The notes below the pieces were generated by a model that was not told the DNA's origin, ran no database searches, and saw only the letters and a list, made by a program, of their open reading frames with translations. From NCBI RefSeq assembly GCF_003991155.1, contig NZ_CP031293.1: 64,000 bases of DNA, one strand, 5' to 3'. Each line of letters begins with the position of its first letter. Positions within the stretch are counted from its first letter, which is position 1. Source of the stretch: Escherichia coli. GTDB lineage: Bacteria > Pseudomonadota > Gammaproteobacteria > Enterobacterales > Enterobacteriaceae. Both the position numbers and the translations under genes were made by a program. Below, piece after piece: positions 29,492 to 39,205 of this stretch.

Positions 29492-29625
29492 AGTTTGCTC
29501 CTGCCATAACGTGAAGAAGCAATGACCTGGTGGTCCGTGACTTCCCTACGCTGGCATTATCCAGATCAGGTGATACGGGTATTTCTCAGCCTTCACGCAG
29601 AAGGGCACCCCGAGTCGTTTGGTTG
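29492..29625 (-). promoter_or_regulatory. TPP riboswitch (thi-box) leader of thiMD
   Basis: Minus-strand leader reads AACCAAACGACTCGGGGTGCCCTTCTGCGTGAAGGCTGAGAAATACCCGTATCACCTGATCTGGATAATGCCAGCGTAGGG, the thiM aptamer as I recall it, followed by the expression platform up to the thiM ATG. Confidence 0.85.
29544..29625. repeat. 82-bp direct repeat, left copy (attL-like); lies within the thiM riboswitch aptamer
   Basis: Perfect 82/82 identity with 37276..37357. Confidence 0.9.
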
Positions 29626-29837
29626 AATCTCTATATTTTGTGCCAGCTTAGGGGAAGTGGCTTGCAGATGCAAGCTCGCCTCCATTAATTGCTTCTTCTC
29701 TGTGTACCCCATTTTGTACCCCATATCAGAAATGAAAAAGAAACATTTAACATCTATCATTCAGATGATAAAAACTATTGATTATCTTAATTTGCTAATT
29801 TATATTATTTATCTAAATTTGATAGGTGAGATAAAAA

Positions 29838-30077
29838 ATGACAGAAACCCAGATCTACGAGAACATTAAGCAAGCCATTAGCAGCGCACCACGAAATAGC
29901 CAAACGATGGAAATGCACCTCCAGATGATCAAATATGCTGACCATCTGAAAAAGGTTACGGCAAAAGAGTTTTGTGAAGGTGTAGGACTTAAAGCCAGCT
30001 TTGGTACAGAGTTCAGCAAAATGAGAAATCTTACCGAGCGACTCAAAGCTGCTGGACTTGACACCACGAAGTTATAA
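29838..30077 (+). CDS. Hypothetical small protein (island)
   Basis: 79-aa ORF with SD-like GGTGAG upstream; no recognised motif. Confidence 0.4.
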   Translation: MTETQIYENIKQAISSAPRNSQTMEMHLQMIKYADHLKKVTAKEFCEGVGLKASFGTEFSKMRNLTERLKAAGLDTTKL

Positions 30078-30242
30078 AAAACAAATCATCAATATATTAT
30101 TTTTGTTTTCCAGACTTACTTGCATATGTTTCTACGAGCATAAAAAACAACAACCACCACATAGCTATTACCATAATAATGTTTTCCTTTTATATTAAAC
30201 AGAGAAATAGAATTAGAGCGTGGAATAGATGAATTCTATTTT

Positions 30243-30488
30243 CTATAACTTCTTGAGGTTGAATGTAGAAAAAGACAGCTCTTTCATTTCAATAACACCG
30301 AAATTTGATAGCTGTTTCAGCCAGAATTTTAAACCTGACTCAGAGCAACCTGCTCGATGTAACACATCGCTATATTTTAGCGGTGTTGGCTTTCCTTTAT
30401 AGAGGTAAACAAGCGTTTCGTAGGTGTGTTTTCCGGTGTCGTTACACTGAATGCGGTCTACTTGATTTTTTACTAAATATTGGATCAT
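30243..30488 (-). CDS. Hypothetical small protein, possible winged-helix (island)
   Basis: 81-aa ORF with AAGGAGG upstream, directly after the 239-aa gene stop. Confidence 0.45.
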   Translation of the reverse strand: MIQYLVKNQVDRIQCNDTGKHTYETLVYLYKGKPTPLKYSDVLHRAGCSESGLKFWLKQLSNFGVIEMKELSFSTFNLKKL

Positions 30489-30499
30489 AGTCCTCCTTA

Positions 30500-31219
30500 T
30501 TAAAATGGAATGTCAAAATCGTCCTCTTCTGTCTCAGGTATCGTGTATATATGTTCTCTTCCTGTAAATTCAGAAACCACTATTGAAATTAGCCTGTATG
30601 CCTCTATTTTATCGCCCTGCGTTTCAGCTAAAGCCCACTCAAGGGCTGCTTCTGTTGGCTGTCCATTCGGTTTGCAAATAGTGACACCGCCCCAAGGAAG
30701 CTCTGTTTTTTCCTGCTGAATAGAGCGTGTTGTTTCTAGTGTTTTTTTATCTTCCGTAGGGGGAAGCTGTTCAGGAACAGCTTTAACAGTAGATACTTGC
30801 TCTGTCTGTGGCTTTTCTGCATTTACAGAGGCTTTCGCTTCTCTTGGTGCTGTAATATGTGCATCTGTAAAGGGTAATGCTTTATAGAGTGATGTTTGAC
30901 CGTGGCGTGCCTCTACAGAAAGAACTCCCATATCAACAAACATATTTATAATATTGCGTACCTGACGATCACTAACCATTCCAATATTAGCTAATGTTTT
31001 TTGAGTAGCGTAACATTCTTGCCCTTGTTCATTGAATCCAGCTATATAGCTATAGATTTCAACGGCTGGCAGTGTAGCGGTGTATTCATTACCAGATGGT
31101 GAGTACCATTTTTTAAACATCTTCAACCATTGCTCAACAACTACATATTTTTGTTTACCATCTTTCTGATTTAGACATTTGGCTTTCGCTTCGGCAATTG
31201 TTTTGATATTTTTGATCAT
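30500..31219 (-). CDS. Putative replication-initiator-like DNA-binding protein with SSB-like acidic C-terminal tip (…EEDDFDIPF)
   Basis: 239-aa ORF with strong AAGGAGG SD; N-terminal wHTH-like segment, P/E/K/T-rich linker, C-terminus DDFDIPF. Confidence 0.6.
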   Translation of the reverse strand: MIKNIKTIAEAKAKCLNQKDGKQKYVVVEQWLKMFKKWYSPSGNEYTATLPAVEIYSYIAGFNEQGQECYATQKTLANIGMVSDRQVRNIINMFVDMGVLSVEARHGQTSLYKALPFTDAHITAPREAKASVNAEKPQTEQVSTVKAVPEQLPPTEDKKTLETTRSIQQEKTELPWGGVTICKPNGQPTEAALEWALAETQGDKIEAYRLISIVVSEFTGREHIYTIPETEEDDFDIPF

Positions 31220-31343
31220 TTAGTTCCTCCTTTGTAAGGACTGTAATTAGTAGTTCATTAACAAGTTTTGGAATTGATTTCCCTTCTGCCTTTGCGCGAT
31301 TTAACAACGCGTTATAAGTTGCAGAGTCAAAATTAATATTCAT
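31155..31343 (-). CDS. Ribbon-helix-helix (CopG/Arc-like) small DNA-binding protein
   Basis: Start at MNINFDSATYNALLNRAKAEGKS with GGAGAGGAGA SD; overlaps start of the Rep-like gene. Confidence 0.55.
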   Translation of the reverse strand: MNINFDSATYNALLNRAKAEGKSIPKLVNELLITVLTKEELNDQKYQNNCRSESQMSKSERW

Positions 31344-31365
31344 TTGGTTTTCTCCTCTCCTGTTA

Positions 31366-31548
31366 TTATTCTTTCTCTGCTTCTGCCTTACGCAGTTCAT
31401 CAATAATCTTGAGTGCATCGTCAAAGCATTTTTCACGCTCTGGATAACCTCGACTCCTTGCCATATTACGATTCATTACTACTTGATGTCGTGTTAACTC
31501 ACCTTTTTTAAATGCCTCTACGACGTGTTCCGGTATAAACCATTTCAT
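31366..31548 (-). CDS. Hypothetical 60-aa protein, first gene of the island's minus-strand operon
   Basis: ATG preceded by AAGGAG at optimal spacing; basic/acidic helical sequence. Confidence 0.5.
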   Translation of the reverse strand: MKWFIPEHVVEAFKKGELTRHQVVMNRNMARSRGYPEREKCFDDALKIIDELRKAEAEKE

Positions 31549-32323
31549 AAAAAACTCCTTATTCAGTTAAAAGAAAAACACCTTGCAAGCCTGACGGCTT
31601 CAAAGTGCATTGATTTTGATTATTTAGAGAAGAATGTTTTTCTGTCCCTCTAGTACCTATTATTACATATAAATAAACATTTGTCAATATCTTTTCATAA
31701 AAAATCAGAACCTTTTCATGCACTTACATTTTTTCTTAGCGATTCGTGCTCTCCTGTGTAGTGCTATTCTTCATTACCAGCTAAAACGCTCTAAAACGCG
31801 TTCTAACGAAGTTTTGATAAAAGCAATACATTCTCTTATGTAATGGCTGTTTAGCTCGCCAGAGGCTTATTTAAGTGGCTTATTTTGTATTTGTTAGATG
31901 ATGATAGATATAAAACAGAGAGTTCTTAGATTAGTTACTTTATAAAACGCTCTGTAAAGCCCTGTAGTGAGTTTATATATGTAGGCAAAGCGGTTTCCAT
32001 TCTCTACCCTGCTTAATGCTGTTAGAGAAGCATTTAGACCCCTTATTTTTAATTACCTAAAGTATCCTCTATACATCTCTGTTATGAAACACCTCTGAAT
32101 CCTTCATAAAACACATTATGACGCAAAGAACACTTTTCTAAGGTGATTCCCTTCCTGAACTCTGTTTCTTGCGTCAGAGAGCTACACAGAGAGCTTATAA
32201 AGCTATTATTAATAATAAAGTAGATAAAGTAAGTAAGATAAGTAAGAAGATTAACTAAGATAGATAAGATTAATAAGATCAGAATTCTCTTTCGGTGTCG
32301 CCTCTGGCTTTTCCACCGAAAAC

Positions 32324-33019
32324 AATTACACGACTACAGAATGTAGGAAGTGAAATTGTATTGAGGCTTAGTGAAATTACACGAGGAAAGCAGAGTGTAA
32401 TTGAGCTTTAGCCGCTCTCTCTTCGAGTAATTACACAACTACAGAGAATAACAGAGTTATTAAATGTAGGAGGGTAATTAAGAGTTAGAGAGAGTTAACA
32501 CGTAAGCAATCAGATGATTGGTTAGGTGATTACTCTTACTGCGCACAGCGCAATAGTATTCCTTCGTGGGCGTTACCGCCAACGATAGTTACACGAAGAA
32601 AGTAACGCTTTGCTTTCGGTGTGAGCGGAACGGGCCAGCCACAAAGCCCGAAAGGTAGCGGAGTAAGGCTGCTTGCCAGAGAGTGGAGCTAACGCCGGAA
32701 GGCAAAAGATCATATATATAGTATAAAGAATATTATTTAATTATAGTATTGGTGGAACTCATTACCTAAGGTAAACCGGAGACCACTTCCAACGGTTAGG
32801 CAACCACTTCCAATTGTGTTATTTCCCCTTTTACCCTAAGTAAATTTTAGCCTTTCGTTACATCCATTTATCACATAGCACTTACCCTGTGTAAATCATA
32901 GAATAATGCTCTCTATTCCCTGTGTAATTCCATACTAAAAAATTCAATGAAAAGTAGTTTAAAAGTGCAATGTTAGCTTTCTTCACTTTTACATCACTTT
33001 CGCTGCGCCTTGTGTAATG
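32324..33019. repeat. Iteron-like repeat cluster (AATTACAC core, both orientations) in a 1.75-kb non-coding region
   Basis: AATTACACGACTACAGA at ~32324 and AATTACACAACTACAGA at ~32429; shorter copies at ~32375 and inverted at ~32396, ~32885, ~32918, ~33008. Confidence 0.6.
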
Positions 33020-33312
33020 CGGCTTACAGAGCACTATCAGAAATTATTGATCAAAAATCAACCTATTATTTGTCGAACAAGTTTTCTTTAATGCAACAAA
33101 AATTATTTTTTCAAAATAAACACACAATTTAATAGCTTGCTAATTTTACCAAAATGTAACTACATGATTCTCATGCAAGAAGTGTAGTGATAAGGCAGGC
33201 TAAATCACCACACTAAAAAACTTCGAATTTCGTAGTGAAAAAAGTACTTTACACACCTAATCAACACGCCCAATAATCACTACACACAAATCAATACAGA
33301 AGAAAAAAGAAG

Positions 33313-33864
33313 ATGGCTAATATTGGATACATTAGGGTATCGACTGTGCAACAAAACACAGACCGTCAATTAGCAGGAGTAACTCTTGATAAAGTCTTTG
33401 AAGATAAAGCGTCAGGCAAGAACACTCAGCGCCCACAGTTTGAGGCAATGATGAACTATGTGCGGGAGGGTGACGTGTTACACGTCCATAGTATTGATCG
33501 CCTTTGTCGTAATACAGCCGACCTTCTGGCAACTGTAGAGCAATTAACAAAGCGCGGCGTGTCTGTGCATTTCCATAAAGAAGACTTTAAGACAGGAAAG
33601 AACTCTCCCGCAGGGAATATGATGCTCACAGTTCTTGCAGCAGTGGCACAAATGGAACGTGAAATGATGCTTGAGCGTCAACGTGAAGGGATCGCCGCAG
33701 CCAAGGCCGCTGGACGTATAGCAAAACGTGGTAATGGAAAAGCAATTGATCGAGCGGGAATTGCTGCCGCTCTCGCGAATGGTGGCTCAATTCGGAGCGT
33801 AGCAAAAGATTTCAGTGTCAGCACGCAGACGGTGCAACGTATCAAGAAAGAGCAGGTGGCGTAA
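33313..33864 (+). CDS. Small serine recombinase (resolvase/invertase family)
   Basis: 183 aa; N-terminal catalytic motif IGYIRVSTVQQNTDRQ with the nucleophilic Ser; C-terminal HTH. Confidence 0.85.
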   Translation: MANIGYIRVSTVQQNTDRQLAGVTLDKVFEDKASGKNTQRPQFEAMMNYVREGDVLHVHSIDRLCRNTADLLATVEQLTKRGVSVHFHKEDFKTGKNSPAGNMMLTVLAAVAQMEREMMLERQREGIAAAKAAGRIAKRGNGKAIDRAGIAAALANGGSIRSVAKDFSVSTQTVQRIKKEQVA

Positions 33865-34030
33865 TGCCTCCTTGATATTTGACAGGGACGGTCGGCAAAA
33901 ATCGGGGCTTGCTGATCTCAGCGTTGAGCGGTTCTTGCAATGGTGCCTAGGTGCTCGCTTGTATTCCCCTTCGATAATCACCACTAAGCCACTTATTGCC
34001 TTGTGGAGTGGCCCGAAAATTACTGATATC

Positions 34031-34531
34031 TTATTGATTCAGTCGATCCCATTTAACCGCAGATACAATTCCCCAATTACCACTAGCATTAGGCCTACGC
34101 CACTTCGCGGTTTCCATTCCACGAAGGTATTCGAGAGCTTCATTGAACGAACTGAAACGTTTCTGGGCTGATTTTTCCCCTACTCTAAACGAACCATCGC
34201 GAGTACTTGCCAATCCTGGATGAAAACACGACCCATCTGCAGCATAAGGAACAAGTACCTCCTGATCATCAGGTTTCCTTGAATCAGAAGCCAGTAACTG
34301 CCAAGGCTCAATACGCAAAGCGTCAGCCAGAACCTCAATTGCATCAAGAGATGCATTAGAGCAACCACGCTCAATTCGACTCATATAACTACGTGCAAAA
34401 CCACACCGATCTGCAAAGGCCTCTTGGCTTAAGCCAATAGCTATACGGAACTCTTTTACTCGTTGTCCAAAAAGGTATCTCAGATTCTTTCGCATGGCAC
34501 AAAGATGCAATTTGACGCACCAATTAACCAC
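34031..34531 (-). CDS. XRE-family HTH regulator with uncharacterised C-terminal domain
   Basis: Cro/C1-type HTH (GLSQEAFADRCGFARSYMSRIERG); likely start at internal Met (34495). Confidence 0.7.
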   Translation of the reverse strand: MVNWCVKLHLCAMRKNLRYLFGQRVKEFRIAIGLSQEAFADRCGFARSYMSRIERGCSNASLDAIEVLADALRIEPWQLLASDSRKPDDQEVLVPYAADGSCFHPGLASTRDGSFRVGEKSAQKRFSSFNEALEYLRGMETAKWRRPNASGNWGIVSAVKWDRLNQ

Positions 34532-34605
34532 GCACTAATCGTGACATTTTGAATCAATCATGTATTATTAGCATCACCATCCATTTGACACACCAAGGGA
34601 GACAA

Positions 34606-34953
34606 ATGAAAAAACTAGTATTTGCCGCTTTGTTAATTCCAGTGATGGGCCACGCCACAACCTTTTCCTGTAAAGCAATACAGGAAGGTCATATTGACTC
34701 GGGAAGTCAGAAAGTTTCTGTAGATTCAACTTTTGATATACAAGATAAAAAAATGACCATAAATCTTGGCGGTAAAACTTGGAGACTTGATTTGGTAGGT
34801 CAAAAAAGCATCGCAAAGATGTATGCTACACCTGACGGAGGGGTTGCAGCCACATACATTGACAATGGCAGTATACCGATATTTGTATTACGCCCTTCTA
34901 ATCCCGATGGGGAGATGGCTGTTTACACATTGAGTATGTGTTCTGAAGTATGA
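34606..34953 (+). CDS. Small secreted protein of unknown function
   Basis: Start at MKKLVFAALLIPVMGHA (signal peptide) with AAGGGAGA SD; divergent from the XRE gene. Confidence 0.6.
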   Translation: MKKLVFAALLIPVMGHATTFSCKAIQEGHIDSGSQKVSVDSTFDIQDKKMTINLGGKTWRLDLVGQKSIAKMYATPDGGVAATYIDNGSIPIFVLRPSNPDGEMAVYTLSMCSEV

Positions 34954-35030
34954 TTGATCGGCGTGATATTCACGCCGTTTTTGGGGAAATTTGTATATTG
35001 AAAAATATAGAAATAGAACTTTTATCAAGC

Positions 35031-35756
35031 CTATTTATTAACAGGTAGTAATGTCAGATCGCCATAATGGGCTTGTCTATGGCAATTAGGACATAATGCA
35101 ATAGCATTTTCCACAGAGTCCTCCCCCCCCTTTGAAAGCCACTCAATATGATGAACTTCTAGAAATGGAGTACCATCTTCCTTTAGAAAAGGAGCATCTC
35201 GCTTACAATATTGACATTTTCCATTTGCACTCAAAAGAACTTCAGCAACTACATATGGGCTTCGTTTATAAACTCGTGTTGTTACTTCGATTAGTTCCGG
35301 GATTTTACTTTCTGTCGCTAAAATTTGCTTTCGTTCCACTGAAGATAATTTTGCAGCCGTCTCAACAGCTTCTTCGAAAACCGATTTTACTTGACGATAA
35401 CGCCACATCCCTTCTAAATCCTGGTATAATTCCCAAATACCGTGCACAGATGGTTGATAGATTTCAAAAATATTTCCACGCTTGAACAATCGGTCATACT
35501 TATGATGCCGATGAGTTACATCATCAGTTCGTCGGGCAGTTTTGTTGAAACTCCAGTAGCTCCGCTTACAATTAACTGTATTAGCAATTAAATTGAGCCA
35601 AGTATTATCTTTATAAGATGGAAATAGCTTTCTAAGATAATCATCTACCTGCTTAGCCGTTGCAGCCCCACCAAACTGATTAGCAATTATCTGTATGGTA
35701 ATAGCTCTTATCGGTTGATCGCCATACTTGTATTTTTTGCCTAAATTTTTAACCAT
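35031..35756 (-). CDS. HNH endonuclease, McrA-like C-terminal nuclease domain with distinct N-terminal domain
   Basis: C-terminal CQYC...EVHHIEWLSKGG...NAIALCPNCHRQAHY zinc-finger HNH motif, similar to what I recall of E. coli McrA; ~150-aa N-terminal region unrecognised. Confidence 0.75.
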   Translation of the reverse strand: MVKNLGKKYKYGDQPIRAITIQIIANQFGGAATAKQVDDYLRKLFPSYKDNTWLNLIANTVNCKRSYWSFNKTARRTDDVTHRHHKYDRLFKRGNIFEIYQPSVHGIWELYQDLEGMWRYRQVKSVFEEAVETAAKLSSVERKQILATESKIPELIEVTTRVYKRSPYVVAEVLLSANGKCQYCKRDAPFLKEDGTPFLEVHHIEWLSKGGEDSVENAIALCPNCHRQAHYGDLTLLPVNK

Positions 35757-35884
35757 AGAAGACTCACTAAGCCTAAATTCATCTTAAGTTATTATTGTAA
35801 ATTAGTTGTGAAAATTTTTGATCTCAGACAATAAAAATCTACAAATTATTAGCTGGTTATACACTAAGAAGGATACACGAATAA

Positions 35885-37222
35885 CTAAGTCTCCCAACAA
35901 AGACCATCGATCACATAACAAACGGTGGAAAGTGGGAATGTGTGCAGATAACGCTGGGTAATCCCTACTCCACTCTTTTCATGACCTACCACCTGTTGCA
36001 GATGCGCCAAATTACTCACCCAACCAGCTAAACAAGTAGAAATCATAGTATGCCGGAAACTATGCACCAAGCGCCGCTGCCCATAATCATCAAGATAAGG
36101 AATATCAAGCTGATCACGAACATCTGAAAGAACTTTACCTATCTTTGACATATTTCGACCTGAGACTTCCGAAAAGATTTTCTCTTTCCATTGGCGGTTA
36201 ACAAAATCCAGAAACCCCCACTCAATCAGTTTGGGATGAATCACTACCTGTCTTGTAGCATTCTCAGTTTTACCCAGCCTTCTTTCCGCGATCAGAAGAT
36301 AGTGCCGCTGGCTATCTTCATCAAATTTGATCTGCGACTTCTCCAGTTTAGCAATCTCACCTCTTCTGGCTCCTGTGTACGCCAACAACAAAGTGATCCA
36401 CTTCTGCCATCCATCAGGCTGCTTTAGTGCCCATCCTACAAATTTTTTCATTTCTGCTGCACTGTATGCACCAAACCTAGCTTTGGATGGTGCCGCTACT
36501 ATTCCATCAGTCGGAGACTTAGATAGAATATCTTTGTTTTCAGTCAGAAATGTTTTGAATAACGATTTGTAGATTTTAAGGTGCTTATGTACAGCCTCAG
36601 CACCAACTAAATCCTCTGGCAGCACATCATCACATTCGATTAGTTGCTGAATAGTCATTGACCTATACGGTTGCACTACACGCTTTGGTAAGTTTTCGAC
36701 AGTTTCCATTACTCGCTTAATATCTTGTTTGGTGATTGCCGTTACGTCTGTTTCTTTTCCCAAGACAACAAGCAATACCTCCATATAACGCTCATTTGCC
36801 ATTGAGATCGATTTTGTCCAATTTCGACCTCTTTCCTCCTTGTACATAGCCCACGCATCAGCAAGTGTTAGCACCTTTTCCGGTTTGGCTGGTGGTTGAA
36901 GCTGCAAAACTTCTTTAGAAATATTGTTCAATTGCTGAGGGAGTGGCAACGGAATCATTACGTTACGTGACGAAGCGATCAAGTTTGAAACAAACTTATT
37001 AAATTGTGGCAACGGAGTAGCGAGTGATTTAACGAAAGGAATGTGCGGAGTAAGGCCAATCATCAACGCCGATGCTTCGCGATAACTGTCAGTAAAAAGT
37101 GATTTTTTGTATATCCGACCATCCGAAAGCCGGATTTGTAGATAGTAATTACCGTTTCGCTGAAATGTGTATGGGAGAGTTCTTGACCTCATAAACGCCC
37201 CCTTTTTGTACCTTAACAGCAT
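35885..37222 (-). CDS. Tyrosine site-specific integrase
   Basis: 445 aa; C-terminal catalytic region with HSFRHT and GITQRYLH; starts 53 bp from the right direct repeat. Confidence 0.85.
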   Translation of the reverse strand: MLLRYKKGAFMRSRTLPYTFQRNGNYYLQIRLSDGRIYKKSLFTDSYREASALMIGLTPHIPFVKSLATPLPQFNKFVSNLIASSRNVMIPLPLPQQLNNISKEVLQLQPPAKPEKVLTLADAWAMYKEERGRNWTKSISMANERYMEVLLVVLGKETDVTAITKQDIKRVMETVENLPKRVVQPYRSMTIQQLIECDDVLPEDLVGAEAVHKHLKIYKSLFKTFLTENKDILSKSPTDGIVAAPSKARFGAYSAAEMKKFVGWALKQPDGWQKWITLLLAYTGARRGEIAKLEKSQIKFDEDSQRHYLLIAERRLGKTENATRQVVIHPKLIEWGFLDFVNRQWKEKIFSEVSGRNMSKIGKVLSDVRDQLDIPYLDDYGQRRLVHSFRHTMISTCLAGWVSNLAHLQQVVGHEKSGVGITQRYLHTFPLSTVCYVIDGLCWET

Positions 37223-37275
37223 GATTTATGGTCAAAAAGAGATACAACCACATAATTTTCAAGACTATTTTGGCC

Positions 37276-37357
37276 CCCTACGCTGGCATTATCCAGATCA
37301 GGTGATACGGGTATTTCTCAGCCTTCACGCAGAAGGGCACCCCGAGTCGTTTGGTTG
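37276..37357. repeat. 82-bp direct repeat, right copy (attR-like); duplicate of the thiM aptamer segment
   Basis: Identical to 29544..29625; followed by native sequence leading into rcnR. Confidence 0.9.
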
Positions 37358-37445: not shown

Positions 37446-37718
37446 TTATTTGATATATGAATCCAGCACCTTCAGAACGACATCCAGATCTTCTTCACGT
37501 TTTAGCTCATCCCCCTGGTGAACGATGTGTTCCGTCAGATGACCTTTAATCACTTCCCGCATCAGACCGTTTACCGCGCCACGGATAGCAGCAATCTGTT
37601 GTAAAACTGCAGCGCATTCGTGCGGCTCGTCGAGCATTTTCTTGAGCGCCACGACCTGGCCCTGAATCTTACTGGCACGCGCTTTCAGTTTCTGTTTATC
37701 ACGGATGGTATGAGACAT
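37446..37718 (-). CDS. rcnR: Ni/Co-responsive repressor RcnR
   Basis: 90-aa ORF, CsoR/RcnR family; divergent from rcnA. Confidence 0.9.
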
Positions 37719-37766
37719 GGCAACACCTGGTTAACAAGAATATGAAAAATCATAGCACTATTAATC

Positions 37767-37801
37767 TACTGGGGGGTAGTATCAGGTACTGGGGGGGAGT
37801 A
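37767..37801. promoter_or_regulatory. RcnR operator sites (TACT-G6/7-AGTA) in the rcnR-rcnA intergenic region
   Basis: TACTGGGGGGTAGTA and TACTGGGGGGGAGTA, 5 bp apart; matches the RcnR recognition motif as I recall it. Confidence 0.7.
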
Positions 37802-37838
37802 GAATCAGATTGCCGAATTAATACTAAGAATTATTATC

Positions 37839-38648
<810 letters not shown>

Positions 38649-38866: not shown

Positions 38867-39205
38867 ATGACCATTAAAAATAAGATGTTGCTGGGTGCGC
38901 TTTTGCTGGTTACCAGTGCCGCCTGGGCCGCACCAGCCACCGCGGGTTCGACCAATACCTCGGGAATTTCTAAGTATGAGTTAAGCAGTTTCATTGCTGA
39001 CTTTAAGCATTTCAAACCAGGTGACACCGTACCAGAAATGTACCGTACCGATGAGTACAACATTAAGCAGTGGCAGTTACGTAACCTGCCCGCGCCTGAT
39101 GCCGGGACGCACTGGACCTATATGGGTGGCGCGTACGTGTTGATCAGCGACACCGACGGTAAAATCATTAAAGCCTACGACGGTGAGATTTTTTATCATC
39201 GCTAA
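38867..39205 (+). CDS. rcnB: Periplasmic Ni/Co homeostasis protein RcnB
   Basis: Start at MTIKNKMLLGALLLVTSAAWA (signal peptide) inside the longer 38687 ORF; 112 aa. Confidence 0.8.
   Translation: MTIKNKMLLGALLLVTSAAWAAPATAGSTNTSGISKYELSSFIADFKHFKPGDTVPEMYRTDEYNIKQWQLRNLPAPDAGTHWTYMGGAYVLISDTDGKIIKAYDGEIFYHR

Follow-up and report, generated by a model that had tools for sequence, protein, structure and literature searches.

Background

The system closest to the locus described here is the RcnR operator of Escherichia coli K-12. E. coli RcnR is described as recognising a tandem operator made up of a pair of type 1 sites that have the pattern TACT-G6-N-AGTA, a finding credited to Iwig & Chivers (2009, J Mol Biol 393:514), and this operator is the example that the family description gives for a tandem type 1 site. 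The accounts on which we draw state that one metal-free RcnR tetramer occupies each TACT-G6-N-AGTA site, and that RcnR recognises the inverted repeats TACT/AGTA, touching the DNA mainly in its minor groove, together with the unusual A-form-like shape of the unbroken G tract. The RcnR tetramer is reported to block the transcription of rcnA and rcnB and to depart from the DNA with Co(II) or Ni(II) (PMC7105576). According to its title, the study of Blaha et al. (2011, Biochimie 93:434) found that RcnR represses both rcnA and rcnR via a shared operator.

The operator, the repressor and the regulatory logic were worked out for E. coli K-12 in the years 2006-2011, and therefore the locus that we analyse here carries little weight as a discovery. 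Its value is that of a correctly annotated regulatory landmark in the window, by which we mean the whole 64-kb stretch of E. coli DNA that was analysed. The initial annotation had recorded the elements for completeness rather than for novelty and it was right to do so, as the operator had previously been characterised in K-12. The comparative data presented below add modest detail, namely that both sites and their 20-bp register are very strongly conserved, together with the likely positions of the promoters and with natural versions of the locus that differ in the number of sites.

Results and discussion

Two exact RcnR motifs in the rcnR-rcnA gap

Two G-tract elements lie between the divergent genes rcnR and rcnA. 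The positions of these elements and of the neighbouring genes in the window are the following:

37446-37718, minus strand: rcnR, Ni(II)/Co(II)-responsive repressor of the CsoR/RcnR family, 90 aa (NCBIfam equivalog NF011613, Pfam PF02583)
37755-37813: imperfect dyad enclosing both sites, with 16-nt arms (37755-37770 and 37798-37813) that are 75% complementary
37767-37781: RcnR operator site 1, rcnR-proximal, TACTGGGGGGTAGTA on the plus strand, TACT-G6-T-AGTA, type 1 of the CsoR/RcnR family, exact motif match
37782-37786: inter-site spacer TCAGG, 5 bp, constant in length and variable in its letters
37787-37801: RcnR operator site 2, rcnA-proximal, TACTGGGGGGGAGTA on the plus strand, TACT-G7-AGTA (equal to TACT-G6-G-AGTA), exact motif match
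37839-38648, plus strand: rcnA, Ni/Co efflux permease and regulated target, 269 aa (NCBIfam NF007454, Pfam NicO)
38867-39205, plus strand: rcnB, periplasmic accessory protein downstream of rcnA (Pfam PF11776 RcnB, 67.8 bits; annotated as rcnB in an identical genome record)

Two TACT-G6/7-AGTA elements had initially been placed in a divergent promoter region. The span given for them, 37767-37801, is exact to the base and the location holds: both sites are inside a 120-bp gap (37719-37838) which, by the curated gene models, separates rcnR on the minus strand from rcnA on the plus strand. The description of the elements needs one correction, because site 1 is TACT-G6-T-AGTA and its G6 tract does not abut AGTA. 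Both sites correspond to TACT-G6-N-AGTA with 0 mismatches, that is, with half-sites 7 bp apart and an unbroken G tract.

Read directly along the plus strand, the order is AATC TACTGGGGGGTAGTA TCAGG TACTGGGGGGGAGTA GAATCAG. Sites 1 and 2 form a 15-nt direct repeat, 93% identical, whose copies start 20 bp apart, and each of them is an interrupted palindrome in which 7 bp separate TACT from AGTA. The outer flanks of the large dyad are AGTAGATT on the minus strand and AGTAGAAT on the plus strand. There are 2 exact matches to TACTGGGGGGNAGTA in the 64-kb window versus 0.00 expected by chance, as estimated from 100 dinucleotide-preserving shuffles, and when up to 2 mismatches were tolerated no further match beyond both sites was found in the 64-kb window (0.21 expected). 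An 81-aa open reading frame that spans the operators (37742-37987, plus strand) is a mechanical one that overlaps rcnA out of frame and was not counted as a gene.

Over the 120 bp between the genes, the DNA agrees with E. coli K-12 MG1655 at 100% of the positions and contains exactly two matches to the motif; therefore, the published sites are these two. The published RcnR binding experiments reportedly used K-12 DNA. The fit to the established RcnR recognition pattern, which had been proposed for this locus from the beginning, is borne out by the form of both sites and by the complete identity of the gap and of RcnR to K-12. Likewise, the match to the published RcnR footprints appears to be supported, on the basis of secondary citations and of the sequence identity to K-12. 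We are highly confident that the two elements are the tandem RcnR operator in the shared control region of the divergent rcnR and rcnA(-rcnB). Directly observed here are that the sites are present, where they lie, how significant they are and how well they are conserved, as well as the identities of the genes and the identity to K-12, and no evidence contradicting the RcnR operator was found in the sequence, gene-identity and conservation analyses.

Identity of the repressor and of its target

The product of rcnR scores 197 bits against the NCBIfam RcnR equivalog NF011613 (cut-off 138) and is identical to K-12 MG1655 RcnR in 90 of its 90 residues. His3, Cys35, His60 and His64 are present in the translation, which gives the H-C-H-H (W-X-Y-Z) metal-ligand fingerprint that is described as separating RcnR from the copper-sensing CsoRs. 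The question of whether the sites are bound mainly by the paralogue FrmR, a formaldehyde sensor, or by another protein of the CsoR family has to be considered here, given that RcnR and FrmR are described as mutual closest relatives in the family and that a G/C-tract design is said to be common to the family operators. Actually, the RcnR open reading frame does match the FrmR model weakly, with 76.5 bits. Nevertheless, this score is below the cut-off of 133, whereas the equivalog model identifies the adjacent regulator as RcnR above its cut-off; furthermore, the sites accompany rcnR in 79 of the 80 loci that were recovered with an RcnR query, and the literature consulted assigns the motif to RcnR. 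We regard it as very improbable that FrmR or another relative is the main ligand, and we retain RcnR as the repressor of these sites.

Regarding the target, the rcnA product reaches 547 bits against NF007454 (nickel/cobalt efflux transporter, RcnA subfamily; cut-off 195) and is 96% identical to K-12 RcnA, the differences being mainly in the His-rich loop. Several complete E. coli chromosomes match the 1.3-kb rcnR-rcnA region with 100% identity and have rcnR and rcnA as the RefSeq annotation; of 5426 E. coli genomes, 5369 contain the region.

In RcnA, the cytoplasmic His-rich loop (38198-38254) is encoded by a hexanucleotide tandem repeat, GCACGA, in 7.5 copies, and its sequence here is HEHEHEHEHDHEHHHHHEH. 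RcnA has 269 aa in this genome versus 274 aa in K-12, with an indel and several substitutions that are restricted to this loop, and it is annotated at further lengths in other genomes.

Conservation of the two sites across species

When RcnR was used as the query against 100,044 species genomes, 80 rcnR loci were recovered, which belong to the Enterobacterales and to one Vibrio (the genera include Escherichia, Citrobacter, Salmonella, Raoultella, Kosakonia, Rahnella, Hafnia, Erwinia, Edwardsiella and Morganella, and the Vibrio is V. europaeus). Two sites were found upstream of rcnR in 68 of the 80 loci, one site in 11 and none in 1. Among the 68 two-site loci the start-to-start spacing was 20 bp in 66, the core of site 1 was GGGGGGT in 59 and the core of site 2 was GGGGGGG in 64, while the sequence of the inter-site spacer varied across loci. 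The information content was 1.2-1.6 bits per position over site 1 versus around 0.1-0.5 bits in the flanks. The site 2 motif served as the anchor of the alignment, so its 2.0 bits are by construction and its conservation is partly so too. In these alignments a protein-binding element with two sites is clearly visible as a phylogenetic footprint.

These results bear on a simpler explanation, in which the G-tract elements only belong to promoters or spacers, or come from a 20-bp duplication that arose by chance, and are bound by no specific repressor. It is true that the sites overlap the zones of the 120-bp divergent region where promoter elements must fall, and that a two-copy direct repeat of 15 nt can in principle arise by chance. 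However, 0.00 exact motifs are expected per window, and all 15 positions of both sites are kept from Escherichia to Vibrio, which is far more than a -10 or a -35 element needs, whereas the flanks drift. In addition, direct binding of RcnR to the motif is reported in the literature. We therefore assign a practically negligible probability to this explanation, and a tandem RcnR operator is the reading that we follow from here on.

A second, diverged rcnR-rcnA locus is present on the 314-kb E. coli plasmid p21AR0133A (locus L005, positions 1184-2694). In this copy both 15-mers are unchanged and have the same spacing, and the surrounding sequence is largely different. The plasmid rcnA is split into two fragments and annotated as incomplete. 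Altogether, the operator region was matched by 8 plasmid records in the E. coli collection.

In Escherichia whittamii Sa2BVA5 (locus L013, position 1435 and upstream) the start codon of rcnR abuts sequence internal to rcnA (GCCTGGTTTTTCATCCCCAGCGCC). The arrangement resembles the outcome of a deletion between CCTGGTT microhomologies, in which the two operators would have been lost along with the two promoters and the first codons of rcnA.

Candidate promoters and their relation to the sites

The aligned loci also point to the probable positions of the two promoters, which are the following:

37749-37757, minus strand: candidate extended -10 of rcnR, TGCTATGAT, 9 nt from the edge of site 1
37800-37805, plus strand: candidate -10 hexamer of rcnA, TAGAAT, whose first two bases are common with the AGTA half-site of site 2

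In 67 of the 67 distinct two-site loci there is a TAnnnT hexamer at the position of the rcnA candidate, and in 44 of them it is TAGAAT; T37805 is invariant (2.0 bits) despite its position outside the anchor motif. This hexamer, overlapping the end of site 2, is likely to be the -10 of rcnA. In the sense direction of rcnR, the stretch from site 1 to the start codon of that gene contains TGnTAnnnT in 59 of the 67 distinct loci (shuffled controls, 9%), and in 43 of those 59 it is exactly 9 nt from site 1. In this genome it lies at 37749-37757 on the minus strand, and it is likely the extended -10 of rcnR.

When 17-bp spacers are assumed, both promoters have their -35 on site 1, and the spacer and the first -10 bases of rcnA are covered by site 2. 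The -35 elements implied in this way (TAGTAT for rcnA and the G tract for rcnR) are poor matches to TTGACA, and therefore the geometry by which RNA polymerase might be occluded is tentative. A consensus promoter scan reported neither of the two candidates.

Two other promoter assignments were considered and rejected. The single hit of the scan, TTGCCG-16-TATTAT (37810-37837), is poor as an rcnA promoter: 1.1 hits are expected from shuffles, its -35 is unconserved (around 0.2 bits), and it ends 1 nt before the rcnA ATG, leaving no leader for ribosome binding. The conserved AAGAAT..ATT.TCATG before rcnA is more likely to represent the translation initiation region than a promoter. On the rcnR side, the large dyad suggests a mirror-image -10, TAGATT (37764-37769, minus strand), which would overlap site 1. 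This hexamer is less likely than the extended -10 at 37749-37757, since its final T (37764) is poorly conserved (0.4 bits) and many Citrobacter loci have TAGATC or TAGAAA instead.

A possible mode of repression

The following mechanism can be proposed, in which RcnR binding, its stoichiometry and the release by metal at these sites are taken from the literature, and the exact promoter hexamers and the steric-occlusion geometry are inferred from cross-species conservation. Apo-RcnR would sit on both sites, with site 2 overlapping the start of the rcnA -10 and site 1 covering both -35 regions. Bound RcnR would then exclude RNA polymerase from the rcnA and rcnR promoters, probably by steric occlusion. 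Because both -35 elements would be on site 1 and site 2 would cover the spacer and -10 of rcnA, a single repressor-bound region would shut both promoters, and this dual shut-off agrees with the shared operator named in the title of Blaha et al. When cytosolic Ni(II) or Co(II) rises, the metal would bind to RcnR, through ligands that include His3, Cys35, His60 and His64, and would weaken its binding to DNA. The release of RcnR would finally allow the transcription of rcnA-rcnB, and thus efflux, and of rcnR itself.

Possible non-equivalence of the sites and their number

Each site has its own base at the N position from Escherichia to Vibrio: 59 of 68 loci have T at the rcnR-proximal site, and 64 of 68 have G at the rcnA-proximal one. 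Furthermore, loci with a single intact site were found in Morganella (five loci), Edwardsiella anguillarum, Erwinia psidii, an Enterobacter sp. and E. coli 97_3250, and in every one of them the remaining site has the site 2 (G7) form and adjoins the rcnA -10 candidate. At the other extreme, nine loci of the Kosakonia/Phytobacter type have a third, degenerate element, AACT-G7-AGTT, located 21 bp past site 1, in an intergenic region that is 20 bp longer.

That the N base differs by site, and that loci with one, two and three sites occur naturally, suggests that the sites are not equivalent, and this is the only mildly new angle of the analysis. It is conceivable, although we hold it to be rather doubtful, that site 2 is the ancestral primary switch of rcnA and site 1 an addition for autoregulation or cooperativity, and that the number of copies (1, 2 or 3) tunes the Ni/Co set-point between lineages. 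The one-, two- and three-site versions could be used in the study of metal set-point tuning or in the design of Ni/Co biosensors (cf. PMC7105576).

Sequence variants in E. coli

Of 5361 E. coli genomes, 4437 (83%) have an identical 59-bp core (37755-37813), and another 910 have one or two changes in it. Nine one-change variants were sampled. Three of them had C37806A, directly past the rcnA -10 candidate, and two had C37783T, in the inter-site spacer. The remaining changes, each in one of the nine, were a G-to-T in the tract of site 1, a G-to-A in the tract of site 2, and site 2 tracts of G8 and of G6; two more length variants were found besides. The first four variants had suggested that the variation was concentrated in the G tracts, but this idea was dropped after five more had been added, as the common variants C37806A and C37783T are outside the motifs.

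The length variants of the site 2 tract come from complete genomes, with G6 in FDAARGOS_1285 and ETEC1716 and G8 in A8 and S1-INA-02-B, and they may be either genuine or errors that long-read assemblies make in homopolymers. Their existence is what could be put forward for a different role of the G6 and G7 homopolymers, namely that they act as slipped-strand (phase-variable) switches, or form G-quadruplex DNA, and set the expression of rcnA without a repressor. However, the tracts are fixed across species (G6 followed by T in 59 of 68 loci, G7 in 64 of 68) and 83% of the E. coli genomes share an identical 59-bp core, which is the opposite of a hypervariable contingency locus; besides, the length variants are rare and could be assembly errors. 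As for a quadruplex, there are only two G runs, too few for an intramolecular one. Both versions are in our opinion most unlikely, and the tracts are better understood as parts of the RcnR sites.

Among the 13 variant E. coli chromosomal loci inspected, none had an altered TACT or AGTA half-site, although strain 97_3250 (locus L087, positions 1553-1656) has lost one whole site: an exact 20-bp deletion fuses both sites into a single TACT-G7-AGTA.

An integrase island in the neighbouring thiM riboswitch

Apart from the operator, the window contains an island of 7,732 bp (around 7.7 kb) between thiM and rcnR (29544-37357) that is absent from K-12. Its genes encode a tyrosine integrase (ORF 35885-37222, minus strand), a recombinase-family protein, an HNH endonuclease and hypothetical proteins. 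The island is flanked by perfect 82-bp direct repeats (29544-29625 and 37276-37357), each of which is within a full match to the TPP riboswitch, Rfam RF00059 (29526-29622 with 71 bits and 37259-37354 with 61 bits). Therefore, the island was inserted into the TPP riboswitch of thiM, with duplication of most of the aptamer. The copy on the rcnR side has the K-12-like upstream (promoter) side and is now directly upstream of the integrase gene, and the copy on the thiM side has the K-12-like thiM side. Of 5426 E. coli genomes, 161 have the junction between island and riboswitch, which among the matches listed adjoins an annotated riboswitch in 8 of 8.

Comparison with known systems

The operator is already known, and the locus is identical to the published K-12 operator: the locus itself, the motif, the number of copies and the position between rcnR and rcnA are the same. 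The surroundings differ from those in K-12 in two respects, namely the 7.7-kb integrase island beyond the 3' end of rcnR and a His-rich loop of RcnA that is 5 residues shorter here.

Compared with the type 1 operators of the CsoR/RcnR (DUF156) family in general, we found no difference, since the sites have a continuous G6 or G7 tract and half-sites 7 bp apart, and are arranged in tandem. With the type 2 operators, such as those of CsoR in Streptomyces lividans and Bacillus subtilis, the sites share, as far as these are described in the sources consulted, the protein family, G/C tracts with (A)GTA dyads and a repression that is relieved by the inducer. However, type 2 sites are described as having two short G/C tracts 2-4 bases apart, inverted repeats around 11 bp apart and two tetramers per site, whereas the RcnR sites of this locus have a single continuous tract and, according to the literature, one RcnR per site.
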